A DNA stretch of 64,000 nucleotides from a virus. Taxonomy: Duplodnaviria; Heunggongvirae; Uroviricota; Caudoviricetes. The notes beneath the pieces were generated by a model. The model did no database searches and was not told the origin of the DNA. It saw only the letters and a list, made by a program, of their open reading frames with translations. A program made the translations under genes and the position numbers. How positions within the stretch are numbered: the first letter of the stretch is position 1; every line of letters starts with the position of its first letter. The stretch is taken from positions 273,301 to 337,300 of the IMG/VR virus record IMGVR_UViG_3300026302_000005; one strand, written 5' to 3'. Below, piece by piece: positions 19,346 through 47,849 of the stretch.

Positions 19346-20418
19346 TCCACAATCGTCAGCCGCATGGTCGGGGTCTTCATGGCGTCATCCAGGATGGCCT
19401 GGAATTCGGTCTCCCATGCACCCGCGTCCTTCTCGTCCGACACCATACCGAACCAGCCCATCTTGCCAGATTCGTTCCAGGTGCCGTTGTAGATGGCAGC
19501 GAATGCCGTGAGCGGCTTGACCGTGCCGACGTAATCATCCTCGGTCTTCATGGTTTCGGCATTCCAGCCCCACATGAAGTTGGCCGATCCGTTGACCTTC
19601 TTGATCTCATCCTCATCCTGGCCAGCTTTGGCAAGCTCCACCAGATACTTCGGGTATTCTTGACGGAACCAACGGCGGCGTTCCGCGATCTTGTCAGCCT
19701 TCATGCGGTCCCAGTTGATATCCACCAGGAGTGCAGTGTCCAGCCCACCCGTGTCGGGCTTGTCTTCCATGCCCCAGGACCGCTTGCCGCGATCACCCCC
19801 AGCACCATCCTTGACGAACAGCCGTTCGCTGTAGCGGCCACCGATGACCCACCAGTCCCACTGTGCGTTCGGGTTCGTCCGGTCGATGATGCGGGCGATA
19901 TCGCCATTCTCGTCCAGTTCGATCCAGCCGTATTTGGTTTCGTCGGCGGGCACCGATCCGAGCACCTTGTAGCTGTGCCAGTAATCGACGAACTCCGCGA
20001 ACGTCATGCATTCGGCCACTGAGATTTCGACCTCTTCCGATCCTTCCGGATAGTTCGGGGTGCGGGCATGATAGACGTCGGTGCCCCAGTTGTCCCTGGT
20101 CACCCGGCGTCCATCGGAAAGTTCACGGTCGTTGAAGAAGCCCTTCGACTTGAGATCGGCCTCTTCGACATCGGTCAGTTCCCGCCACAGCGAGTTGTCC
20201 CAGGCAGAAATCAACGTGCCATCGGCCAGTCGGAGCATCGACCGGGTGCGTTCCGGGTTGTTGTATTCTGCACGGGACCGCTCGGTGATGTCGATGTTCT
20301 GAACGAACTCGTTGTCCAATCCAGTGCATTCGAATTCGTGATACGGGGCCAGGGCCCGCTCCACGGTATCATCGGGGTCGGCGTCATTGGTGAAGACTGC
20401 AAGTGCAAAGTGGCTCAT
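19333..20418 (-). CDS. hypothetical protein (361 aa)
   Basis: Long ORF with no recognised motif. Confidence 0.5.
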   Translation of the reverse strand: MSHFALAVFTNDADPDDTVERALAPYHEFECTGLDNEFVQNIDITERSRAEYNNPERTRSMLRLADGTLISAWDNSLWRELTDVEEADLKSKGFFNDRELSDGRRVTRDNWGTDVYHARTPNYPEGSEEVEISVAECMTFAEFVDYWHSYKVLGSVPADETKYGWIELDENGDIARIIDRTNPNAQWDWWVIGGRYSERLFVKDGAGGDRGKRSWGMEDKPDTGGLDTALLVDINWDRMKADKIAERRRWFRQEYPKYLVELAKAGQDEDEIKKVNGSANFMWGWNAETMKTEDDYVGTVKPLTAFAAIYNGTWNESGKMGWFGMVSDEKDAGAWETEFQAILDDAMKTPTMRLTIVDCHI

Positions 20419-21641
20419 TTGATGTGTCCCATGGTTTGATAGGCGAGGTTGATCAGATATTCGCGGGAGGCCGAAAACTCAACACCTGCCCAAACGTCAC
20501 GCAGTTGTCTCAGAATTTTACCCATTTCCGGGCCAGGTGTAAAGCCCAAATCGATCAGGTCTTGACCGGTAATGGGAAATTCCGGAACGGCCATACCTTC
20601 GATATCCCGATACAGCGTGTTGAACCCGGTAGAACTCGGCCCTGTAGTGACTGGCTCCTTTCGGTTCATGATCGCAATCCACGCCAGAACATCCGACTTC
20701 TGATGAGTTGCCAGCATCTGCGTGGATGTGATTCGCGTGGGTGGAGTATCAAAGAACCGCTTAGCAAACAGCACCGGGTTCAGTTCTTCGCGGGAAACCT
20801 TGTAGCGATCTCGCAGCAGTGCCACGGCTTCTCCAATACCTGCTTGGGTTTTGGGAAAGCTTGCCGTCAGCATCACTGCGGGTCGGGTATCCGGTATGGG
20901 GATCAACAGGTTGCTGTCAACCGATGACAGTCCGATATGATCCAGCACTCCGGCACGTTTCATGCGGTTGAACTGACCCCAAGCTGGAGTTGTGCCCATT
21001 TGCAGGATTTTTCCGATTTCCGCCCAGATGCGCTCACCACTGATTTGCTCCAGACCCTTTGCGGTTTCCCGGAAGATTGGATAGAGCAGATCATCATCCC
21101 TGAATTTGGCATTACCTGCCATCTTGGCACAGAACCGAAAATACCGCAGAATTCGCAGATAGTCTTCGCGAATGCGATCCTCGGGGGCCCCGACGAACCG
21201 AATCGTGCCTTCATGCAGATCGGCCATGCCGTTGTGATAATCATGAACCACCAGGTTCACGTCCAGATACATCGCGTTCATGGTGAAGTCTCGACGCAGA
21301 GAATCAGTCATCCAATCCTCAGTGAACGCAACCTCGGCATGACGACCATCCGTGGCCACATCCACACGCAGGGTGGTGACTTCGATGTTTTCATTGCCCA
21401 CAACAACCGTCACGGTGCCGTGCTTGAGCCCGGTCGGCACAACTTGCAGACCAGCCTTTTCCATGATGGTGATGACGGCTTCTGGACGGGCTGTGGTGGC
21501 GATATCCCAGTCCTTGGGATCGCGGGCCATGATCAGGTCACGAACGGCACCACCGCAGATGCGACCTTCATGGCCAGCACCATCCAGCACCCACATCACA
21601 TGCAGAGCAGCAGGGTTGATATCGCTCAGATTAAACTGCAT
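20415..21641 (-). CDS. cca: tRNA nucleotidyltransferase (CCA-adding enzyme / poly(A) polymerase family head domain)
   Basis: Head-domain motif GGAVRDLIMARDPKDWDIATTARPE. Start taken at ATG 21641 (MQFNLSD); the track start at 21728 is a TTG. Confidence 0.7.
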   Translation of the reverse strand: MQFNLSDINPAALHVMWVLDGAGHEGRICGGAVRDLIMARDPKDWDIATTARPEAVITIMEKAGLQVVPTGLKHGTVTVVVGNENIEVTTLRVDVATDGRHAEVAFTEDWMTDSLRRDFTMNAMYLDVNLVVHDYHNGMADLHEGTIRFVGAPEDRIREDYLRILRYFRFCAKMAGNAKFRDDDLLYPIFRETAKGLEQISGERIWAEIGKILQMGTTPAWGQFNRMKRAGVLDHIGLSSVDSNLLIPIPDTRPAVMLTASFPKTQAGIGEAVALLRDRYKVSREELNPVLFAKRFFDTPPTRITSTQMLATHQKSDVLAWIAIMNRKEPVTTGPSSTGFNTLYRDIEGMAVPEFPITGQDLIDLGFTPGPEMGKILRQLRDVWAGVEFSASREYLINLAYQTMGHIK

Positions 21642-21835
21642 TTTCGATCTTCCGTTCCACAACCACACAATCTCGGGGGCACGTGTTGTAGGCCAGCATA
21701 CGCTGGTCTTCACCATGAAATTCCGCAACCACTTCTGGGCAAACCGGATATTTTCCGGACCAGAGCAGTTCGTTGTCGAAGCGGCGGTGTTCGAAAATCA
21801 TGACGGGCTCCTATTGGAACCCACCTATACCCGTA

Positions 21836-27726: not shown

Positions 27727-27803
27727 TGGCGGCTCCGGTGGGACTCGAACCCACGACCAACAGTTTTAGAGACCGCTGCTCTAACCAACTGAGCTACGGA
27801 GCC
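27727..27803 (-). tRNA. amber suppressor tRNA (anticodon CTA, reads UAG); Trp-like body (loop CTCTAAA versus E. coli tRNA-Trp CTCCAAA; discriminator G)
   Basis: Acceptor GGCTCCG/CGGAGCC, D-arm GCTC-AGTTGGTTA-GAGC, anticodon stem GCGGT/ACTGT, T-arm GTGGG-TTCGAGT-CCCAC. Confidence 0.7.
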
Positions 27804-27804
27804 A

Positions 27805-29004
27805 TTGCATAAATACATACGTGTTTCTGATAGAAGAGTCAACCCCATAATGCGCCTGTTACAACTCATTGAAGGGACTTCCGACTACATTGACAGGGCA
27901 AAGGATGCTCGTCGAAACATAAGTCTGGATTCCGTTGTTCAAAAAGCCTTGGATATGGCACAGACCGGTCAGTTTACAGAAGAGAGAACTAGGGCCATCA
28001 ATTTTGCTGCCGAAGTAATCCGATCCGGTAAACCCGCCGCTGTGGTGGGTAGAGAATGGGGCTATAAACCGCACAAATCGTTTAACCACAAACATATTGG
28101 ATTGCGACTGTTGATGCGGGCATATACGGTGCTTGGGGGCACACGATCTGGTGTTGATTTCCAATCCCTGATCGAAGCCCCTATTGGAGACTTTGGCACC
28201 ATCGGAGATTTCTCCGATCCCAACGCCTCGATCCCAAACGCTGCGGATCGTCGTGCTGTTACTGCTGAACCGATGATTCGTCGTATCAAGCTGGCTTGGG
28301 AAAAGACGCCATTTCTGTTCAACCTGTTTTTTGCCAACGTTCCCGGAGCCCAAAAGTGGGTAGAGCAGGGATATGTGAGTGCCGGAACTGTTCGATCCGA
28401 GTTTCCGGACATGGCCAGTCGTATCATGGCTGGAAAAGCAGACAAAGCAATCACTGTGGTATTCACCAACAACCTGGGGGATGCCGGGATCAGCTTTACC
28501 CCGTGGATCATGGCACACCGTATCAGCCACGCAATGGTGGTTCCCAACAATACGAATGATCCTCGGCAGGGTGTTCAGAACCGGGCATTCTACACGGGAT
28601 CGGAGAAACTATACACGTTCACCAACAGTCTGATCTATCAGATGTTCTCAAGGTCAACGGTTAGAGTGGGGTCTGATACCCATGAGCAGATATATCGGCA
28701 CATCTACGAATATATCGGCACCATGAAGTCTGCCAGATCGAAACTGCTGGCCCGACCAAATGAATTCTATCACGAACTGTTTGCCCAATACCTACTGAAT
28801 GGAGACATTACGTTCAATGCCTTCACTCCGGAATTTCTGCTGAACTTTGCGGAAGACTCGGGCACCGGGGAACAGCCCCATATCGAGCACCTCGATACCA
28901 TGCTGGGTGAAATGAATGAGACCCTTGCGGGTCTCAAACAGGAACTCCTGAACAGCTTTACGGCTGGGCTATCCCACGCTCAGGGCAAAGTCATCTTCAT
29001 GTGA
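27805..29004 (+). CDS. hypothetical protein (399 aa)
   Basis: Plus-strand ORF. Possible paralog of 25602..26744 with a degenerate H-motif (HRISH). Confidence 0.45.
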   Translation: MHKYIRVSDRRVNPIMRLLQLIEGTSDYIDRAKDARRNISLDSVVQKALDMAQTGQFTEERTRAINFAAEVIRSGKPAAVVGREWGYKPHKSFNHKHIGLRLLMRAYTVLGGTRSGVDFQSLIEAPIGDFGTIGDFSDPNASIPNAADRRAVTAEPMIRRIKLAWEKTPFLFNLFFANVPGAQKWVEQGYVSAGTVRSEFPDMASRIMAGKADKAITVVFTNNLGDAGISFTPWIMAHRISHAMVVPNNTNDPRQGVQNRAFYTGSEKLYTFTNSLIYQMFSRSTVRVGSDTHEQIYRHIYEYIGTMKSARSKLLARPNEFYHELFAQYLLNGDITFNAFTPEFLLNFAEDSGTGEQPHIEHLDTMLGEMNETLAGLKQELLNSFTAGLSHAQGKVIFM

Positions 29005-30112
29005 TCTGTTCCCATGGGTAGTCGTCATAGCCGAAATGCCCACGTGCAGCGGTCTGACGATAAAGGGGACGACGGAGATCGAACCGCTTGATGATGCCGG
29101 AGGGCGACAAGTCGATGGCGTAGTCTTCCAGGATTTCCCGGACCTCTTCCTCGTTCATACCATCCACATGCACCGAAACAGGCTTGGCAACACCGATGGC
29201 ATACCCAACTTGCACTTCGATGTCTCGCATACCATAGACGGCCTTGCAGAGCGTCTTTGCCACATGGCGGGCTGCATAGGCGGCAGATCGGTCAACCTTG
29301 GTCGGGTCTTTGCCAGAGAAAGCGCCACCACCGTGGCGAGCCATACCACCGTAGGTATCGATAATGATCTTCCGACCGGTCAAACCGGAGTCTGCAATTG
29401 GTCCACCAATCGTCCACGGCCCAGCCGGGTTGAGGAAGTATTTCGTATTCGGGGTGACCAGGTTCTGGTATGGCTCAAGCCCACGACGAACCACATCTTC
29501 CAGGTTCGAACGAATCAGACCATACATGCGTTCGGTAACATCGGTATGCACCGATGACAGAACCACGGTGTCGATCTCGATGGGCTCACCCGTATCGTTG
29601 TCATACCGTATCGTGACTTGTGACTTCGCATCCGGTCCCAGCGGGCCCTGACGACGATCCATCTTATGGGCATTGGTGATCGAGCGGGCCACCATCAACG
29701 GCAACGGCATCATCTCGGGCGTATCGTTGCAGGCATACCCGAACATCAGGCCCTGATCACCGGCACCCAGGTTCTCACCATCAGCGGTAACACTGTCACC
29801 GATCTCCCGGGACTGCTCCGTGATGTTGTGAATCTGCTTGACCTTCCACGGATCAAACCCCCATTGAGGATCATCATATCCAATGGCCGTCAGCGTATCT
29901 CGGACGATCTTGCTGATGTCGAGTTCTGCATTGGTGGTCAGTTCCCCGAACACCATAACAGTATCGCCTTTGACAGCAGATTCGATGGCAACACGGCTCA
30001 TCGGGTCCTGACGAAGGCATTCATCAAGAACGGCATCGCTGATCTGGTCACAGACCTTATCAGGGTGGCCATCAGCCACACTCTCCGACGTGAATAGGTA
30101 GGAACCTTTCAT
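28997..30112 (-). CDS. metK: S-adenosylmethionine synthetase
   Basis: N-terminus MKGSYLFTSESVADGHPDKVCDQISDAVLD and GGGAFSGKDPTKVDRSAAYAARHVAK are diagnostic of MetK. Confidence 0.9.
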   Translation of the reverse strand: MKGSYLFTSESVADGHPDKVCDQISDAVLDECLRQDPMSRVAIESAVKGDTVMVFGELTTNAELDISKIVRDTLTAIGYDDPQWGFDPWKVKQIHNITEQSREIGDSVTADGENLGAGDQGLMFGYACNDTPEMMPLPLMVARSITNAHKMDRRQGPLGPDAKSQVTIRYDNDTGEPIEIDTVVLSSVHTDVTERMYGLIRSNLEDVVRRGLEPYQNLVTPNTKYFLNPAGPWTIGGPIADSGLTGRKIIIDTYGGMARHGGGAFSGKDPTKVDRSAAYAARHVAKTLCKAVYGMRDIEVQVGYAIGVAKPVSVHVDGMNEEEVREILEDYAIDLSPSGIIKRFDLRRPLYRQTAARGHFGYDDYPWEQIT

Positions 30113-31124: not shown

Positions 31125-32849
31125 TTACTTCCCGGTCTTGCGGTCACCCATCGGTGCGCCACGCGGGTCTTGGGCCGGGGCGGGCTTTGCGGTGTTCAGT
31201 TTGCGCAGGAAGTCACTGTCGGCCAGGTCGATGGCCGTATCCAGCGGATCACGTGCGGTCTTCGGCGTCGAGATGCCGTCGAGAACCCCATTCAGCCCCT
31301 CGCTGATGTTGACCCCGGCCTGTTGACCAAGAGCTTGAACCAGCGGGAGTTGCAGGCCCATGCTGAGGATCGCGTCTGCGACTTGACCAGCAGCACCACC
31401 ACCGTTGCCAGTGGATTCGCCACCACCGATGTTTCCGCCGCCCATGCCGGTAACGTTGGTCAGGGTGATGCGGTCGATGTTCTGGGCAGGAGCCACCATT
31501 TCGGCGATGATCGCGGGCAGAGCTTCGAGGCGAGCCAGTTGCAGCTTCATCTCGATGATTTCCCCGGTCAGGGCGTTTTCGGCGGCGACCAGTGCGGTCT
31601 TACCTTCGGCTTCGGCCAGGGAGATGGCCAGGGAGCCTTCGGCTTCGGCCTTCTGGGCATCAGCTTTCGCCTTTGCACCGATCAGCACTGCATCAGCGTC
31701 GGCCTGGGCTTTGGTCAGCACCGCAGCAGCCGTATCTTCGGCAGCAGCACGTTGGGTTGCAGCAGCCACACGGGTAGCAGTTGCGGTCTTCTCGGCTTCC
31801 TGTTCGGCCTGGATGATCGCGATCTTCTTGTTACGGTCGGCCACGGCGACTTCACCAGCAGTCTTGACGGCTTCTGAGGCGGAGACCGCTTCGGCACGAG
31901 CAAGGTCGGCTTTGGCACGAGCTTCGGATTCCGCCATGGACTTCTCGTTGACCGCGATCTTACGATCTTGTTCAGCGATTTCCAGGGCCTGCTCTTGGGC
32001 GATACGTGCAGCCTCTTCGCGGCGAGTTGCTTCGGATTGGGCAACAGCGATTGCGGCCTTCGATTCAGCCGTCGCAGTGGACACGGCTTGCTCTTGGGCG
32101 ATCTTCGCTTCTTCCGTCTTCTTCTTGATGGCCAGTTCTTCAAGAACCGCAGTCTGCTCGGTCGTGGCAACCTGCACACGAGCTTCCGATGCGATCTGGG
32201 CGCGTTTCTTTTCGGAGTCAGCCACGACCTGGGCCAGCTTCTGCATACCAACGGCGTTGAAGGCGTTGTTGGCATCCATCTTGTTGAACGGGGTCTGGTC
32301 CAGCATGGTCAGCGATACCGATTCCAGTTCCAGGCCGTTCTGCACGAGGTCTTTGTCCACGGCATCCTGCACCTTTTGGACGAATTCCGCCCGCTTCTCG
32401 TGCAGTTCATCCATGGTCATCTGGGCACCGACCGAACGCAGGGCGTCAACCAGCTTGTCTTCGACCAGCGAACGCAGAGCCTGCGGATCGGACGTCGAGT
32501 TGCCAAGGGTCTTTGCAGCCTGGGTGATGCCTTCTTCATCCGGTTTGACACGGACGTAGAACTTGGTGCCCACATCGACACGCATACGGTCGGCGGTGAT
32601 CAGGGCTTCGGCACCAGAGCGAATGATCTCCAGACCGAGGGTCTTCATGTTGACCCAGGTCAGTTCGTGCATCATCGGGATGATGAGTGCGCCACCGTTC
32701 TGGATGACTTTCTTGCCACCAGCACCGGTGCGGATCATGGCCCGCTCGGGGGTGGTGCGCTTGTAGAGCCGAGCGATGATGAAACCGAAGATGACGATGG
32801 TCACCAGGGCAATCACTGCCGGAACTCCGAGGGTTAGAAGCGTGTTCAT
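31125..32849 (-). CDS. flotillin / SPFH (band 7) family protein, YqiK-like
   Basis: N-terminal TM helix, SPFH domain (IIPMMHELTWVNMKTLGLEI...), long Ala/Glu-rich coiled coil. Confidence 0.75.
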   Translation of the reverse strand: MNTLLTLGVPAVIALVTIVIFGFIIARLYKRTTPERAMIRTGAGGKKVIQNGGALIIPMMHELTWVNMKTLGLEIIRSGAEALITADRMRVDVGTKFYVRVKPDEEGITQAAKTLGNSTSDPQALRSLVEDKLVDALRSVGAQMTMDELHEKRAEFVQKVQDAVDKDLVQNGLELESVSLTMLDQTPFNKMDANNAFNAVGMQKLAQVVADSEKKRAQIASEARVQVATTEQTAVLEELAIKKKTEEAKIAQEQAVSTATAESKAAIAVAQSEATRREEAARIAQEQALEIAEQDRKIAVNEKSMAESEARAKADLARAEAVSASEAVKTAGEVAVADRNKKIAIIQAEQEAEKTATATRVAAATQRAAAEDTAAAVLTKAQADADAVLIGAKAKADAQKAEAEGSLAISLAEAEGKTALVAAENALTGEIIEMKLQLARLEALPAIIAEMVAPAQNIDRITLTNVTGMGGGNIGGGESTGNGGGAAGQVADAILSMGLQLPLVQALGQQAGVNISEGLNGVLDGISTPKTARDPLDTAIDLADSDFLRKLNTAKPAPAQDPRGAPMGDRKTGK

Positions 32850-32873
32850 GTGAGTTGTAGCTCCACTAGAAGG

Positions 32874-33632
32874 TTACGATTGAAGGCGAGATTGGGCGGT
32901 ATCAAGGCGAAGAGCCTCATAGACCGGCCCCGGTCCACGAAGAACCAGAACGTCGGTTCCTTGTGGTAGTTCAGGCTCCCCAGCATACGGGATCACCCGG
33001 ATGTTGTGGAGGTTTCCATGCCGGTCGCGGACATCGGCACGAGCAGGAAGATCAACACGGGCAGTGCCAATGGCAATCTTTCCGACCGAGCCACCGAGCG
33101 AGCGGCGTGATATGATATCGGTGGTGGTCTTGGGGATCAGACTGGCGAATGCACGACTGATCCACTTGGTGCCGATCAGGGCCGGGACAAACGCCGCAGC
33201 CGATGCGATCCATCCGAACAGCATGAACCCGAGCAGGCTTTGCAGAACGAACTGACCCAGGAAGCCGACGATGGAAAAGCTTGCAGCAAATCCGATCAGC
33301 CACACCATCAGCGGGACCGAACCGATTTCAAACCATTTGAGAACAGATTCGAGGGCTGACACATCGCCAACATCTGCGACATTCGCATCTGCATCAGCAC
33401 CACCCATGTCGAAGGCAATACGAATGTCCCCTTCGACATCGGCCACGTTGACATCGATTTCCGGGTCCAGGTCGATGTCAGCATCACTGTCACCACCGAG
33501 AATAGAGAACCCCGTGGTGATCGACATGATCACTTCCAACACCAGCACAGCCAGCAGGAGAGCCGCCGCAATGCCGAATGGATAGAGCGGGCCACCAGAG
33601 GTAAAGAGCAGTTCCATAGAGAGTTGTCCCAT
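32874..33632 (-). CDS. NfeD-like / YqiJ-like membrane protein (partner of flotillin)
   Basis: Multi-TM N-terminal region plus a C-terminal OB-like segment (GTDVLVLRGPGPVYEAL), located immediately upstream of the flotillin gene. Confidence 0.55.
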   Translation of the reverse strand: MGQLSMELLFTSGGPLYPFGIAAALLLAVLVLEVIMSITTGFSILGGDSDADIDLDPEIDVNVADVEGDIRIAFDMGGADADANVADVGDVSALESVLKWFEIGSVPLMVWLIGFAASFSIVGFLGQFVLQSLLGFMLFGWIASAAAFVPALIGTKWISRAFASLIPKTTTDIISRRSLGGSVGKIAIGTARVDLPARADVRDRHGNLHNIRVIPYAGEPELPQGTDVLVLRGPGPVYEALRLDTAQSRLQS

Positions 33633-33651: not shown

Positions 33652-34152
33652 TCAGGTTGGGTTGCTTATCGCATGTGGTTCAGCATTCGTCAATGGCAAG
33701 TCGTAGACCACTACATGACGATCTTTCATTGCGAACTCAATGATCTGGGAGATAGTTTTCCAATCACCCCCACCCAGGGACGATCCGATCCGAGGAATCG
33801 CCACAACCGGGATGTCATGATAGTCGTCATCGATATTCTCTGTGATCCAGTCGTAGACTTGAACAAAGATCGATTCGATTCCCTGGTAGCTCACATACTG
33901 TTTGCCATCACGACCGAACCACTCCTGGGACACCGCATTGGCGATGAACTTCCCCTTGGTTGGCACCCAGACGATCTGCCCGACACGGAGACCGGATAGC
34001 TCGTATGCGGCCCGATATCCGGCATATGCTTCGGGGTAGACTTCACGAATGGCCTTCGCCACCCCCGAGCCCATCACGCCCTGAGCGTTGCAGCCGTGAA
34101 GGATGATGGGTTCATCAGCGACCATGAGATCGCCCGTTTTGTAGATCAACAC
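33652..34152 (-). CDS. macro-domain protein (ADP-ribose binding / O-acetyl-ADP-ribose deacetylase-like)
   Basis: Motif ILHGCNAQGVMGSGVAKAI. The probable start is a TTG at 34152. Confidence 0.65.
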   Translation of the reverse strand: MLIYKTGDLMVADEPIILHGCNAQGVMGSGVAKAIREVYPEAYAGYRAAYELSGLRVGQIVWVPTKGKFIANAVSQEWFGRDGKQYVSYQGIESIFVQVYDWITENIDDDYHDIPVVAIPRIGSSLGGGDWKTISQIIEFAMKDRHVVVYDLPLTNAEPHAISNPT

Positions 34153-34260: not shown

Positions 34261-34776
34261 TCAGAGACCCAATTTTCGCAAGGCCACCGGTGTCAGAGCA
34301 GAAATCATGTCGGCACCCAGTTGTTCCGCCGTGGGGGTCTTCCCTTCGGATATCAGCTTGGCTGATTTGCTGGTTGCGGCCACGTAGATGCCCTCGATTG
34401 GTCCACCCACGTAGGACATAGCGTCCATCACGTAATCTTCTCGGGACGGCATTGCACCCCGCAGCACGGCCTGTGCGGTCTTCGGGATCAGGATCGCATA
34501 CAGCATGTTGGCCGCAGCAATGCTGTCGATCTCAATCTGAACACCCTGAACAGTGATCGTGGCACCATTCACAAATCGTGCAGCCAGGTTGAACCCACCA
34601 TCGATGATGTTGTTGGCTGTTTGGATCGGGCTGGTGACAGCCGACACCCCGGCCCGAGCAACCATACCGGCACCCCCAACAGCCGCACCCACGGCGGTGT
34701 CCACGGTATCAGCGGCAAACCCGGTCAATCCAGTCGGGTCAAGATCAGTGATCGATTTGAATAGGCTTCCAAACAT
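34261..34776 (-). CDS. hypothetical Ala/Gly-rich protein
   Basis: ORF. Confidence 0.4.
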   Translation of the reverse strand: MFGSLFKSITDLDPTGLTGFAADTVDTAVGAAVGGAGMVARAGVSAVTSPIQTANNIIDGGFNLAARFVNGATITVQGVQIEIDSIAAANMLYAILIPKTAQAVLRGAMPSREDYVMDAMSYVGGPIEGIYVAATSKSAKLISEGKTPTAEQLGADMISALTPVALRKLGL

Positions 34777-34790
34777 GATGTATCCTTCGG

Positions 34791-34994
34791 TCAGATTGCG
34801 GGTTCAAGGCGTTGTGCGCCACAGGTCAGTGCGAAATACGCTTCCGCACCAGTGGTGTCGTGGACAACATCGACCCGGTTCGTTCCGTTGCAGGTTTTCA
34901 CCGTCACAGTTTCTCCAAGTTTGGCAAAACCCGGGGCTCCCATTCCGGTAATCCGTAGTTTGTCACCAACCTTGGTCTCAGAAAACTTGATCAT
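34791..34994 (-). CDS. small hypothetical protein
   Basis: ORF. Confidence 0.3.
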   Translation of the reverse strand: MIKFSETKVGDKLRITGMGAPGFAKLGETVTVKTCNGTNRVDVVHDTTGAEAYFALTCGAQRLEPAI

Positions 34995-35218
34995 CCATGG
35001 ACCCCTTCGTCATGATCGTGTCCACAATGCTCGCAATTATGCGTTTCTTTTTCGAAAGCGTCAAGCGCAATCTGATTGAGATTACCAATAATCTCAGCCA
35101 GATTCAACACGAGGATGCGAATGCGATCCAATTGCAGGCGAAGCTGCGTCTCAGCGACCTCGCCATACAAGGTTTCCAGGAGGTCTGTTGCTTCTTTGGC
35201 CAGTGGGTGTGATGCCAT
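34991..35218 (-). CDS. small protein with a C-terminal Cys/His metal-binding tail (CEHCGHDHDEGVHG)
   Basis: ORF. Confidence 0.3.
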   Translation of the reverse strand: MASHPLAKEATDLLETLYGEVAETQLRLQLDRIRILVLNLAEIIGNLNQIALDAFEKETHNCEHCGHDHDEGVHG

Positions 35219-35219
35219 G

Positions 35220-36194
35220 CTAGATGCCCTTTTTGATAAGCCGCTCGAACTCTCGAAGCCGCTTGTAAACGGAGATCAATTCGACAATCGTCGGCCACGA
35301 TTTCACCAGAAACTGCAAGCTGGTTTCGACCCGACCGAATGCACGAACGATCTGTTGAACCACACCCAGTGTAACCAGTCCACCGGCGATGGTAGGTGCC
35401 AGAGCCAGATATGGGACGATCACCATACCTTGGAAGTATGACCAACGAAACATGTTGAAATACATGTAGTGGAAGTAGGATCGGTAGTGAACCTTGCGGA
35501 CACGATCATATAGGTCCGTTAGCACGGGTTTGTCGATCATGATGGGATCATTCTCGGCCAACACCAGCCGCTTTCGATATGCAGCCTCTTCCTTTTGAAT
35601 GTCATACTCGATGCCAGGGAGCTTATAGCCCACGATGGCCAGCGCAATGGTGCCACCCAGTGCTGCAATGATCGCCACCCACACCAGACCGTGGGATACC
35701 TCTCCCACCCATGGAAGCATGGTAACGCTCTTGGACAATTCCCATAGAATCGGGACGAAGGCCACAAGGGTCAGGATGGCATCCAACAGACCAACACCCA
35801 GGCTTTCCATGATCCTGGCAAACTTCAAGGTGTCTTCCTGAACTCGCTGCGATGCCCCCTCGATGGTTCGAGCTTTCCCGTAGTGTTCGTGGTAGTATTC
35901 GGTCATACTGGTGCGCCACCGGAAAATCCAGTGGGACGTGAAGAAGTCTTTGGCAACCGAGATGACCACCCATAGCCCAGCTATACCAGCGAATGTGAAC
36001 AGCAAACTGATGAACTCGGCTTCGGTAACCGATCCAGGTTCAGTCAGAGCCTTCTGTAGGACGTCGTAGAAGGAACCAAACCACTCGTTGATCTGGACGT
36101 CAAGCTGAACCATCCACCAGGATGCGATGATGATCACCCCAGTCCCCATGATACTCCAGGGTAGCCACTTACGGGTATAGAAAAATCTGAACAT
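35220..36194 (-). CDS. sbmA: SbmA/BacA-family inner-membrane peptide transporter homolog
   Basis: Blocks RWRTSMTEYY, EGASQRVQEDTLKFA, AAYRKRLV and FHYMYFN match E. coli SbmA (recalled from memory). Confidence 0.65.
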   Translation of the reverse strand: MFRFFYTRKWLPWSIMGTGVIIIASWWMVQLDVQINEWFGSFYDVLQKALTEPGSVTEAEFISLLFTFAGIAGLWVVISVAKDFFTSHWIFRWRTSMTEYYHEHYGKARTIEGASQRVQEDTLKFARIMESLGVGLLDAILTLVAFVPILWELSKSVTMLPWVGEVSHGLVWVAIIAALGGTIALAIVGYKLPGIEYDIQKEEAAYRKRLVLAENDPIMIDKPVLTDLYDRVRKVHYRSYFHYMYFNMFRWSYFQGMVIVPYLALAPTIAGGLVTLGVVQQIVRAFGRVETSLQFLVKSWPTIVELISVYKRLREFERLIKKGI

Positions 36195-36253
36195 GGTGAA
36201 GCTCCAATGAGGATACTGTCACATATAATCATGGGGGGATCGGATGTAAAGGG

Positions 36254-36796
36254 TCAGGTGTTCCGGTCGTAGTGACTGGCCCTGACTTGCTCAGGTCGAA
36301 TGACTATCGCCGCTTTTGGGAGATGAATCAGGACCTCATGTTCTACAATCCCAGACATGATATCACCCTCGCTGTCGTCATGATACTCAGCGGGTAGGTC
36401 TGGGAAGTAGAACAACACGTTCGCGGCTGGAAAATGCGATTCTATGATGATCGTTGGTAGACCATCACCTATGGTGTCGCCATAGAAATACTCCACCATG
36501 TCTTCATTGGTAGACCACGATGACACCAACCCGGTTTCATACCGGATTGGGCGTTTCTGTTCGATCAGTGTCACCCAATCCTGCTCGGGTATCGCAGTAG
36601 AACGGTATACCGTTCCTATTGAGGTCCGGACCATGCTTTTCAGTTCAGGGGCATGCTGTAGTAGAAAGTCTGTCAGAAACTTTTTGGTTCCGTCCACCCT
36701 AGCAGATGGTCGCATGGTGGACCACCTATGCAGCATATTGAGAAGATCACTTTGTGATTCCCAATCTACCCGCTCTACCAGATCACGAAGTTTCAT
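36254..36796 (-). CDS. hypothetical protein
   Basis: ORF. Confidence 0.4.
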   Translation of the reverse strand: MKLRDLVERVDWESQSDLLNMLHRWSTMRPSARVDGTKKFLTDFLLQHAPELKSMVRTSIGTVYRSTAIPEQDWVTLIEQKRPIRYETGLVSSWSTNEDMVEYFYGDTIGDGLPTIIIESHFPAANVLFYFPDLPAEYHDDSEGDIMSGIVEHEVLIHLPKAAIVIRPEQVRASHYDRNT

Positions 36797-37475
36797 TCCA
36801 CAACTCGTCCATGAAGCCTTTCATGTATTTACTGGCCGTCATGGTGCGGTTCGTGCCATGATGCTGAACTCGATCATCTTGGAATCGAATCGTCACAGTC
36901 TTATCACCACGCATTCCCGAGCCGACCTGAGCCTTGCGATCCGCAGCCATGTCCGCGTGTTGTGCGCCCTCTGCCATGCCATCCAGGCGGGCTTCCAGGG
37001 CCTCACGAGCCTCACGATAGCTGGTATCACGGGAACGGGTCTGACGGGCCTCCAGGAGCCCCGTGGGGACGTGTGTGAGCCTACAACTGTTCTGGTGCTT
37101 GTTCCGGTGTTGTCCACCAGCACCGGAGCCGCTGAACCATTCAACCTGGAAGTCAGAATCTTCGCGACAAAGATATGCGGGGTCAACCTGGCGATCTGGG
37201 TCAAGAACAGCAACGATGACCGTGCTGGTATGGACGCGACCGCGACGTTCGGTTGGGGGAACTCGTTGGATGCGATGGCCACCGGCAGCATACTCCAACC
37301 CAGATAGATCATCACCGATTACGGTAATCCGGATTCCGTGCTGGCCGTTATCCTCGGTTAGGTGTAGTCACCCATAGCGCACCGCCATGCGGCGATAGGC
37401 TTGTGCAAGGTCCTGCACAAACAGTTGGCTGTCTTTTCCACCTTCGGCGGATTTGATCTCAATGATCTTTTTCAT
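36783..37475 (-). CDS. prfH: RF-H (PrfH)-like peptide chain release factor homolog lacking RF domain 1; in-frame TGA at codon 36 (37368..37370) aligned to a conserved Trp of RF1
   Basis: GGQ motif (SGSGAGGQHRNK). PxT-type motif (GGHRIQRVPPTE). The upstream segment MKKIIEIKSAEGGKDSQLFVQDLAQAYRRMAVRYG-[TGA]-LHLTEDNGQHG aligns with RF1 [34 protein letters not shown]. RBS GGAGA upstream of ATG 37475. Confidence 0.6.
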
Positions 37476-45952: not shown

Positions 45953-46737
45953 TACAGGACACTCCTCATCATATCTTCATGTTCAGCAGATTTCTGCAAC
46001 CGTCGCTCTGCAAAGCGATCTCGCACTTCCTGGATAGCACGGGTTTCCTCATCCCGCAAGACCCGAATTTCAGATTGGATCATATCTTCTACCTGCGAAA
46101 TCTCAAGGAATCTCGTGGGTGTAATATGTTCCATCGTCACTTGGTCGCGTTCGATGAACAATTTCCCCCGATTACCACCGAGATATTCGTAGGTCGAAAC
46201 ACCCTTTACCGAATCAACAACCTCCACATAGAGACGCGATTCGGTTTCACGGATCACACGGACCAGCATACCAGCGGTTCTACCGTGCGGGCGGTAATAG
46301 GATGACTTGGCCCGAATCGCCACCAACCGTTCGACCTTAGCCCGCTTCTCGGCTTCGGCCTGGACAAGCTTCTCATACAAAGCCGATCCGGTCTGTTCCC
46401 AATACTCCCGGGCCTGCTTGGTGAACTGGTAGGGTTGATCATACCAAGCAAAGATACCGGCACGACCAAAGCTGTCTTTCTCTTCTGGTGGTTTCTTGAC
46501 CTGAACAGCCCAACCCCATTTCCAGAACGAGTGAGAGATATCGGTTCGGCCATCCATGTGCTGCTCGAACCAGTCATGCGATTTGGGAACCATCGCAGAC
46601 ATATCGCGATGGAACAACGAGTAGGACCTGGACCCCACATGAGATGCCACACATAGACCGAGGTTTTCTTCGATCATACGCTTCAACACCATCAGGTGCT
46701 TGAGCGTGGGCTTCGCCGGTTCGATCTCTCGTGTCAT
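45952..46737 (-). CDS. hypothetical protein (261 aa), coupled to the AAA+ ATPase
   Basis: ORF with a 1-nt stop/start overlap. Confidence 0.45.
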   Translation of the reverse strand: MTREIEPAKPTLKHLMVLKRMIEENLGLCVASHVGSRSYSLFHRDMSAMVPKSHDWFEQHMDGRTDISHSFWKWGWAVQVKKPPEEKDSFGRAGIFAWYDQPYQFTKQAREYWEQTGSALYEKLVQAEAEKRAKVERLVAIRAKSSYYRPHGRTAGMLVRVIRETESRLYVEVVDSVKGVSTYEYLGGNRGKLFIERDQVTMEHITPTRFLEISQVEDMIQSEIRVLRDEETRAIQEVRDRFAERRLQKSAEHEDMMRSVL

Positions 46738-47849
46738 ATCAGATTTCCCATAACCGCATCAACCACAGTCTGCCGCCACGGCTTCAAGAAAGTCGCAGCC
46801 TTCTCATAGGCCCACCGCTCGACCAACTTGACGGCTTCGGTGAACCGCACATCATAGTCGGCTTCGGTGATCACCGTATACGGCTTTTCCAATGCATCCA
46901 ATCGTTCGAGTAGGTTGTGATGGAATTTCATCCGACCTTCATCATCCAGCACCCGGGTTCCATCCTGAACACGCGGGACCGTCGGTGCCAGCACCAGATA
47001 ATGGTCGATGGTCGATTGCCCTGATGCAACCCTGTCGGCCTGAGAGCAGGCTTCGCCCAGATAGATGGGAGCAAACATGCTGGTGACAATCGCCTCGGTA
47101 TCGGTGAAGCTGACAAACTCGCCGGATTTCTGTGCGCTCCAGATCATCGATTGTTGCATCCACACGATGTTGTTGAAATCCTCCATCGTCAAGTCTGGAC
47201 GAGCTTCACTGATGATCCGACCCCACTCGGGGGCATAGGTCGTGTTGAAGTGCTTTGCCAGCTTCTTGACCATCGTAGACTTGCCGGTGGATTCCGCACC
47301 CATCACGGCAACCGTGAGGCCGATGTCAGCTTTGGCCCAATCACTGACCATGTGGAAGTTTGCAAACGGAGCGGTGCGAACCATTGTTGCACTGATCGGG
47401 AACAGTTCTCGGTCAGGATCGATGGGAAACCACGTTGCCTTGGCTGTTCCCGCCCGAGGCCACCGCTTGTTGATCTGATCAGCGATCTCTGCACCATACC
47501 GATCCGATGTGAATACACGATCTGCATCCCACAGATACACCTGGTTCTGGTCCATCCAGAAATCCCAAAATGCCTTGTCCGTGATGGTGCCGGTGGTATC
47601 GGAGTTCGTCGGGCGGTCGTAATCCTGGTCACGAACGATTCTCCACGACTTCCCAGGAACCTTGGGAAGGGAGTTGAGGTAGTTGTGAACCCACCCATAC
47701 CGCTGTTCATATGTGAAGCAGTCCTTCACGGAATCACCCAAGAGGACGGTGAGTTCGGTGCAGTTGGACCAGGCCATGCGGAGCATGAATTCGTGTCCCT
47801 TAGTGAGGGGCATAAAGCGACCGAGTGTGATACCTTTGTTCATGACCAA
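46734..47849 (-). CDS. nadR: NadR-like bifunctional NMN adenylyltransferase / ribosylnicotinamide kinase
   Basis: N-terminal nucleotidyltransferase motif GRFMPLTKGHEFM (HxGH type) plus C-terminal P-loop GAESTGKST. Confidence 0.7.
   Translation of the reverse strand: MVMNKGITLGRFMPLTKGHEFMLRMAWSNCTELTVLLGDSVKDCFTYEQRYGWVHNYLNSLPKVPGKSWRIVRDQDYDRPTNSDTTGTITDKAFWDFWMDQNQVYLWDADRVFTSDRYGAEIADQINKRWPRAGTAKATWFPIDPDRELFPISATMVRTAPFANFHMVSDWAKADIGLTVAVMGAESTGKSTMVKKLAKHFNTTYAPEWGRIISEARPDLTMEDFNNIVWMQQSMIWSAQKSGEFVSFTDTEAIVTSMFAPIYLGEACSQADRVASGQSTIDHYLVLAPTVPRVQDGTRVLDDEGRMKFHHNLLERLDALEKPYTVITEADYDVRFTEAVKLVERWAYEKAATFLKPWRQTVVDAVMGNLI

Follow-up and report, generated by a model that had tools for sequence, protein, structure and literature searches.

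The gene described here lies in a 64,000-nucleotide stretch of DNA from a virus of the Caudoviricetes (IMG/VR record IMGVR_UViG_3300026302_000005, positions 273,301 to 337,300; the whole stretch is called the window below), and it encodes a transporter whose closest described relatives are E. coli SbmA and Sinorhizobium BacA (SLiPTs; structures 7p34 and 9g3d-g). Both of these transporters are driven by protons and import microcins, bleomycin, proline-rich peptides, NCR (nodule-specific cysteine-rich) peptides and antisense oligomers (PMC8442886, PMC12912959, PMC13316013). Bac7 is also imported by SbmA/BacA, and import by BacA shields rhizobia from NCR peptides (PMC8442886, PMC12912959). In SbmA, helices 0a and 0b make up a peripheral domain, TM0, and precede a core of six transmembrane helices (TM1-6) that dimerises through TM1/2 and TM5/6 (PMC8442886). 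TM0 takes no part in dimerisation and stays immobile through the transport cycle (PMC8442886, PMC13316013). The proposed origin of the family is the membrane domain of a YddA-like ATP-binding cassette (ABC) transporter, which lost its ATPase and acquired TM0; YddA is reported to have no equivalents of E203 and E287 (PMC13316013). A 2025 distribution study places SbmA/BacA only in Pseudomonadota, mainly in Hyphomicrobiales and Enterobacterales (PMC12003926), and a 2026 structural paper still terms their physiological role unclear (PMC13316013).

Word searches in the distribution study gave no match for phages, Pelagibacter or short forms (PMC12003926), nor do the passages searched in the structural paper mention a short form (PMC13316013). 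No published report of phage-encoded SbmA-like genes or of the short form was found either. The SbmA/BacA family itself is already known; what is new is a phage-borne member of its curated short branch. By analogy with SbmA, we consider it likely, at a probability of about 0.6, that the gene product is a proton-driven homodimeric importer used by the phage as an auxiliary uptake gene.

A transporter of the short SbmA/BacA branch

35220-36194, minus strand: transporter gene encoding a 324-residue SbmA/BacA-family protein (open reading frame, Pfam, NCBIfam, PDB, AlphaFold2 and Foldseek)
36202-36205, minus strand: ribosome-binding site GGAG, 7 nt upstream of the transporter ATG, read from the sequence

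The interval 35220-36194, in which the first-pass annotation had placed an SbmA/BacA-like transporter, coincides exactly with one minus-strand open reading frame (ORF), intact from a start ATG at 36194 to a TAG stop at 35222-35220. The encoded protein matches the Pfam family SbmA_BacA (PF05992) with 438.6 bits (E 2e-131; residues 8-320 against positions 2-314 of the 315-position profile), where the gathering score is 24 bits, and Pfam ABC_membrane_2 also matches. Among PDB entries, E. coli SbmA (7p34) was found at E 1.5e-94, with residues 2-318 aligned to SbmA 74-391. Significant similarity to the family, on which that annotation had let its proposal stand or fall, is therefore decisively present. 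The protein matches NCBIfam NF009036 (PRK12369, "putative transporter") from end to end, with residues 1-321 aligned to positions 1-323 of the 326 in the model, and its 416 bits exceed the equivalog cut-off of 385. The SbmA equivalog NF008306 gave 406.1 bits against a cut-off of 492; only positions 81-398 of its 413 were matched, and the N-terminal 80 are absent. Judged by these profiles, the protein is a member of the curated short SbmA_BacA branch and not an SbmA orthologue or copy. The first-pass annotation had also described blocks that match SbmA almost residue for residue. Matching blocks do exist, the longest identical runs being YFHYMYFN (8), QRVQEDT (7) and EAAYRK (6), but the wording is too strong for a protein with 152 of 316 aligned residues (48%) identical to E. 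coli SbmA.

The transporter has no counterpart of the first ~73 residues of SbmA, which form the TM0 domain, and corresponds to the core TM1-6 (SbmA 74-391). The eight-helix SLiPT architecture with TM0a and TM0b, presented as a hallmark of SLiPTs in the SbmA papers, is thus not found here. A wrongly chosen start codon and a frameshift that conceals TM0 were both considered and rejected. An N-terminal TM0 cannot fit, because the ORF is already maximally extended in the upstream direction and the upstream gene ends close by, at 36254, leaving a gap of 59 nt; homologues also begin at the same residue. The AlphaFold2 monomer model (44 sequences) has a mean pLDDT of 82 and contains six long helices. 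The top Foldseek matches of this model are SbmA chains (TMq 0.79-0.87), led by 9g3g_B with a TMq of 0.87 and a root-mean-square deviation of 2.4 Å over 310 columns, and they are followed by Rv1819c and other type IV ABC exporters. The predicted structure is that of a core transmembrane domain of the type IV ABC-exporter-like fold without a nucleotide-binding domain. No ABC_tran or ATPase domain was found in the transporter or in the flanking genes, and the protein ends just after TM6.

The residues with known roles in SbmA are largely retained. The glutamate ladder is complete, E120, E130, E203, E214 and E305 corresponding to SbmA E193, E203, E276, E287 and E378, and the SbmA residues R190, R280, K281, R385 and Y116 are conserved as well. 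In SbmA, the uptake that depends on it is lost or almost lost when alanine replaces any of the ladder glutamates or R190, R280 or K281; R385A changes it little, and Y116 is called essential for MccB17 and MccJ25 (PMC8442886). An alignment of 156 family members, short and long, has 63 invariant columns, QRVQED and E276-x2-YRK among them. The likeness to SbmA and BacA therefore extends over the homologous core, the fold, the full ladder and these five further residues, and a nucleotide-binding domain is absent on both sides. The differences are the missing TM0, the score below the SbmA equivalog cut-off, a changed gate (below), and a phage-borne gene whose cellular relatives are in SAR11, not in Enterobacterales or Hyphomicrobiales. 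BclA, Mycobacterium Rv1819c and YddA share the related membrane-domain fold, which was recovered by sequence (6tqe, E 4e-10) and as a Foldseek core match. In contrast to the BclA/Rv1819c type, the phage domain is neither fused to nor encoded with an ATP-binding cassette, and unlike YddA it has the complete ladder, including the E203 and E287 equivalents. The complete ladder places the phage transporter on the proton-driven side, apart from YddA-type ABC transporters.

Orthologues occupy the same gene module in contigs L111 (81% identity, GC 52%), L113/L114 (72%, GC 57%), L118 (68%, GC 40.5%) and the short L115 (84%). On this conserved gene order, the transporter is a stable resident of this jumbo-phage lineage. 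The Nei-Gojobori ratio of nonsynonymous to synonymous substitution (dN/dS) of the gene is 0.06 against L115 and 0.08 against L111, both ratios being approximate, as dS is 1.8-1.9 and near saturation in both comparisons. The pattern of substitution indicates that the gene is kept under purifying selection, strong along its whole length.

In the importer that we favour, the protein would insert into the inner membrane of the infected host cell and would form a homodimer through TM1/2 and TM5/6, as in SbmA. The proton gradient, relayed along the five glutamates, would drive the alternation between outward-open and inward-open states, and the cargo brought into the cytoplasm would be a hydrophilic, possibly peptide-like solute. 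As a host-derived uptake gene, it would raise the nutrient or cofactor supply of the infected cell for phage replication.

Several observations weigh against an SbmA-like importer. The gate residues of SbmA are replaced, with Leu at Y285 and Asn at D288 in the cytoplasmic gate and Phe at Y368 in the inner gate, so that R280 alone is kept of the SLiPT gate set (Y285/D288', R280, Y368); Y285A abolishes uptake via SbmA (PMC8442886). The position of Y285 is Leu throughout the jumbo-phage clade defined below, and the D288 position reads N, F, G, I, D and I across its six sequences. Of the SAR11 copies, 66 of 68 retain this gate Asp, as do 15 of 17 copies from T4-like phages. TM0, absent here, may stabilise the core in the membrane (PMC13316013), and no member of the short subfamily with a known substrate or demonstrated transport was found in the literature. 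The surroundings give no indication of the cargo, as no neighbouring metabolic gene hints at a substrate and Rfam detected no riboswitch or other non-tRNA family in the phage or SAR11 loci.

The altered gate would also suit another function. Having lost the cytoplasmic gate of SbmA, the jumbo-clade protein could be a regulated proton or solute leak, or a channel, with possible roles in the tuning of membrane potential, the timing of lysis or superinfection exclusion, perhaps together with the YqiJ/flotillin module described below. The substitutions specific to the jumbo clade do cluster in the gate loop (E282, Y285, G286 and D288; the phage reads RKRLVLAEND), and, besides the gate Asp, the only positions near-invariant elsewhere that are changed in the clade are W178, E282 and G286, two of the three in the same loop. 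The L113 orthologue has Gln at SbmA E203, the proposed first proton site, with the other four ladder glutamates kept, and synteny with a YqiJ-like protein and a flotillin is seen in four contigs. However, Y285 is also missing from the SAR11 copies, which have His or Leu and are core cellular genes, and the rest of the relay and the 63 invariant columns are retained in the phage protein. The strong purifying selection along the whole gene also argues against a leak, no PADLOC defence-system model matches the transporter, and no observation ties it functionally to the flotillin genes. We regard a leak or channel as unlikely.

Cellular relatives and other phage copies

Among 185,579 species genomes, the best cellular matches are almost all Pelagibacterales (SAR11), with 70-73% identity. 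Most of the top database matches are ~330 residues long, and the few that carry names are Pelagibacter. The curated family NF009036/PRK12369, common in Pelagibacterales, has the same length and architecture as the phage protein (a 326-position model against 324 residues; ~72% identity to SAR11 proteins), but the phage gene forms part of a distinct clade, has lost the gate Asp and resides in a genome of 52-54% GC rather than in a SAR11 chromosome of 28% GC. The GC content of the gene (52%) is close to that of the window (54%), whereas the median of the SAR11 relatives is 28%. In Pelagibacter HIMB4, the gene is flanked by an NDUS4-like gene on one side and glpX/recJ on the other, and no ATPase gene adjoins it. 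The gene neighbourhood indicates that the SAR11 setting is that of a housekeeping, core gene, and the neighbours are uninformative on its substrate.

A search of 1.84 billion cluster representatives returned 189 at E <= 1e-30; in the best 150 of these 189, 41 of the 47 full-coverage sequences lack an N-terminal extension, and the other 6 carry 77 or more additional residues. Because 41 of the 47 are without the extension, the form lacking TM0 is, by sequence length, the common architecture around the phage transporter.

Copies at 57-63% identity are carried by 27 low-GC IMG/VR contigs. For example, in the T4-like marine contig L013, the gene separates those for the gp47-like and gp46-like nuclease subunits, with gp23 and UvsW close by; contig L006 has gp32. 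The capsid protein of L013 is closest to that of the Methylophilales phage Melnitz (76%), followed by those of the Pelagibacter phages Mosig and HTVC008M (68-69%); a tblastn search of phage records gave no transporter match in these three isolates. A different phage type is represented by L119 (81.6 kb, 31% GC), in which a 321-residue copy occurs with a T7-like RNA polymerase, ClpP, ribosomal protein S21 and a terminase.

The tblastn search of isolated-phage records gave four matches, none of them a convincing phage copy. "Acinetobacter phage MD-2021a" (CAKLQH020000002.1, L112, 254 kb), the one record in the isolated-phage collection with an annotated "phage" sbmA, encodes gatB, threonine dehydratase, pepO and a full-length sbmA and looks like a mislabelled bacterial chromosome contig. 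The remaining matches come from records of Salmonella and Escherichia and consist of short fragments that lack annotation and show SbmA-like identity.

Neighbour-joining trees were rooted on full-length SbmA, and the cellular sequences in them were sampled as best matches only. The jumbo-phage sequences, consisting of four syntenic phage contigs and one sequence of unknown context, form one clade together with the window copy (83% bootstrap), which is sister to SAR11 (97% for the union). Apart from it, the T4-like copies make up a clade of their own (100% bootstrap), and the L119-type copies are placed beside SAR11 sequences in a tree calculated without bootstrap. These tree placements suggest three independent acquisitions of the short transporter by phages. 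A one-gene importer that requires neither a binding protein nor an ATPase would be easy for phages to acquire. Such easy acquisition fits the presence of the gene in three unrelated phage types and a cellular counterpart that is a core gene of nutrient-scavenging SAR11.

The window gene bears the marks of an auxiliary gene, namely a phage-type context, SAR11 homologues at ~72% identity, and syntenic orthologues in four related contigs together with the low dN/dS. Cyanophage pstS is an example of a phage auxiliary gene for nutrient acquisition. The transporter resembles genes of this kind in being host-like, under purifying selection, present in several marine phage lineages and plausibly able to boost uptake. 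It differs in that it is a complete one-gene secondary transporter and not a binding protein or a single subunit.

The first-pass annotation had suggested that a phage copy could sensitise or protect the host with respect to peptides, import a signal or act in superinfection exclusion. In a BacA-like role of the first kind, the protein would import antimicrobial peptides or microcins, and this import could protect the membrane of the infected cell until lysis or alter its sensitivity to the peptides of competitors. The cargoes known for SbmA and BacA, which include microcins, bleomycin, Bac7 and NCR peptides (PMC8442886, PMC12912959), are in line with this idea, as is the conservation of Y116, the residue described as essential for MccB17 and MccJ25 (PMC8442886). 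Its closest relatives, though, are core genes of free-living oligotrophic SAR11 and genes of their phages, not those of the eukaryote-associated organisms in which a role with antimicrobial peptides is documented, and no immunity, microcin or peptidase genes occur near the transporter. The unclear physiological role of SbmA itself (PMC13316013) further weakens the analogy. Microcin, bleomycin or any peptide as the substrate would be an extrapolation from SbmA/BacA, and we give a protective or sensitising role a low probability.

The genome around the transporter gene

The gene was described in the first-pass annotation as encoded by a phage, and the content of the window agrees with this. Gene density is high, and most genes are encoded on the minus strand. 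ARAGORN detected 28 tRNA genes in the 64 kb, all on the minus strand and spanning 5587-56708, and in the Rfam search the window gave tRNAs only and no rRNA. An MT-A70 methyltransferase and an AAA protein are also encoded, and PHROG families 10079 and 2087 match. The phrog_2087 protein of the window has homologues in 492 phage records (best ~30% identical), the best of which come from the large phages Xanthomonas X1 and XacN1, Agrobacterium Atu_ph07, Sinorhizobium Phosso and Burkholderia FLC9. The 10 kb beyond each window end contain small orphan ORFs and HNH, T5orf172, Hint, TelA and radical-SAM genes, and no cellular housekeeping genes were found in the window or in the 10 kb beyond either end. 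An identical transporter protein with the same neighbours is present in three assemblies, in contigs of 375,951 bp (ENA, ERZ27233589:k141_207220), 44.6 kb (Logan) and 6.9 kb (JGI). On the basis of this gene content we infer strongly, short of a demonstration, that the host genome of the transporter is that of a jumbo phage.

What speaks against a phage is that no capsid, portal or terminase gene was found among the largest window ORFs and in the 10 kb past both ends, a weak virion-protein-like match at 11368-12366 being the sole exception in the structural-gene search. IMG/VR scans with two other window proteins gave no close relatives of this jumbo lineage. When the locus was compared at the nucleotide level with 50,697 phage records, nothing was returned, and a 24-kb stretch matched tRNAs only. 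The missing structural genes and the lack of close IMG/VR relatives would be compatible with a gene that is not a functional phage gene, in cellular or plasmid DNA, in a chimeric assembly or as a functionless recent passenger. But the same gene order recurs in three independent assemblies and in four diverged syntenic relatives, and the 28 tRNAs, the dense and mostly one-strand genes, the lack of rRNA and housekeeping genes, and the PHROG matches to large phages are not what such DNA would lead one to expect. A GC content that matches the phage and not SAR11, with dN/dS below 0.1, argues against a passenger. We consider these explanations very improbable, and the phage-borne importer is retained as the preferred reading.

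The tRNA set includes five Leu and four Ser isoacceptors, and those for His, Asn, Tyr and Met are duplicated. An additional tRNA-like Rfam match at 4436-4544 (109 nt, 38.5 bits), missed by ARAGORN, may be intron-containing or degenerate. The tRNA at 27727-27803 on the minus strand has the anticodon CTA, which would read UAG; ARAGORN labels it tRNA-Pyl and it scores 70 bits with the Rfam tRNA model. This tRNA probably suppresses amber codons, yet 26 of 114 crude ORFs in the window, the transporter gene included, stop at TAG.

Other auxiliary genes of the window, besides the MetK gene listed below, are the following.

13734-15029, minus strand: ATP-dependent DNA ligase, auxiliary gene
20415-21728, minus strand: tRNA CCA-adding enzyme, auxiliary gene
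46734-47849, minus strand: NadR-like nicotinamide-nucleotide adenylyltransferase (phrog_3462)

The transporter belongs to a conserved module in the order RF1-like gene, transporter, variable small ORFs, a conserved 171-residue protein, a DarG-like macro-domain gene, a YqiJ/NfeD-like gene, a flotillin gene and MetK. Numbers of promoter and terminator sites in consensus scans were not above the shuffle expectation, and no sigma-70-like promoter or terminator was seen by consensus scan on either side of the transporter gene. The lack of flanking signals fits co-transcription of the gene within a long minus-strand gene array. The members of the module in the window are as follows.

36783-37475, minus strand: truncated release factor 1 (RF1)-like gene (TIGR00019 prfA, 1.2e-48, model positions 115-344 of 361)
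34991-35218, minus strand: ORF of 75 residues whose ATG is 1 nt after the transporter TAG, with a His/Cys-rich C-terminal tail HNCEHCGHDHDEGVHG
34261-34776, minus strand: conserved 171-residue protein, with orthologues in L111, L113 and L118, in each case between the transporter and macro-domain genes
33652-34152, minus strand: DarG-like macro-domain protein (NCBIfam NF048014 4.7e-16, PADLOC DarG 3.8e-19, phrog_335 2.1e-38, synteny)
32874-33632, minus strand: YqiJ/NfeD-like inner-membrane protein (Pfam YqiJ_N and YqiJ_OB, synteny)
31125-32849, minus strand: flotillin-like membrane scaffold of 574 residues (Pfam Band_7 and Flot, synteny)
28997-30112, minus strand: MetK, S-adenosylmethionine synthetase (TIGR01034 8e-130, above cut-off; syntenic in L113 and L118)

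The small ORF directly downstream of the transporter has a 79-residue counterpart in L111, the closest syntenic relative, which ends in CGHCGSHDHSSHDHQEKD, and it is absent from L113 and L118. It has no Pfam or PHROG match. Its position suggests that it may be a translationally coupled partner of the transporter, and its His/Cys tail, which looks metal-binding, might hint at the transporter's cargo. The 171-residue protein gave no Pfam, PHROG or PADLOC match. The macro-domain protein resembles the ADP-ribosyl glycohydrolase domain of the DarG antitoxin and, by this similarity, probably serves in counter-defence against DarT-type DNA ADP-ribosylation.

The YqiJ/NfeD-like and flotillin pair (31125-33632) resembles bacterial yqiJK and is kept in at least three related jumbo-phage contigs. 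The flotillin is syntenic in L111 and L118, and L113 has a gene at the same position; its match to NCBIfam FloT (1.1e-20) is below the cut-off. PHROG has no family for either the YqiJ-like protein or the flotillin. The cellular matches of MetK are at ~52% and of mixed phyla, and neither the cellular nor the phage MetK matches are informative on the host. L111 additionally encodes an ornithine/arginine decarboxylase.

The RF1-like gene is two positions upstream of the transporter and has the GGQ motif, with PPT at the PxT position. It contains one in-frame TGA at 37368-37370 (context VRYG*LHLTEDNG). The same TGA is found at the same position in the L111 gene at about 8640-9325 (DRLG*LHQTEDNG) and in an independent assembly, L003. 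Its presence in the 81%-related L111 and in this assembly indicates that it is conserved and no sequencing error. Programmed UGA read-through or recoding could regulate the phage release factor at this codon.

A recurrent phage transporter and its possible meaning

To our knowledge, complete inner-membrane transporters are rarely carried by bacteriophages. Here, one gene would suffice to add an uptake route to the infected cell, and the transporter has persisted in three or more unrelated phage types, as well as in jumbo relatives that span 40-57% GC. We tentatively propose, while holding it to be a possibility with the odds against it, that short SbmA-like transporters with neither TM0 nor ATPase form a recurrent, undescribed class of phage auxiliary genes, captured independently by jumbo phages, pelagimyophage-like T4 phages and phages with a T7-like RNA polymerase. 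In a bolder version, the gate-less importer of the jumbo clade would have been converted into a device for membrane potential or exclusion that works with the YqiJ/flotillin module.

The core exists naturally without TM0, the domain described as a hallmark of the fold, and the short form offers a minimal system for the study of proton-coupled alternating access. Since peptide antibiotics and antisense oligomers are taken up through SbmA, an importer delivered by a phage could be of interest for work on bacterial sensitisation. If the proposed class is real, the target shared by these phages, a core uptake function of SAR11, would identify the physiological substrate that has long been sought for the SbmA/BacA family.

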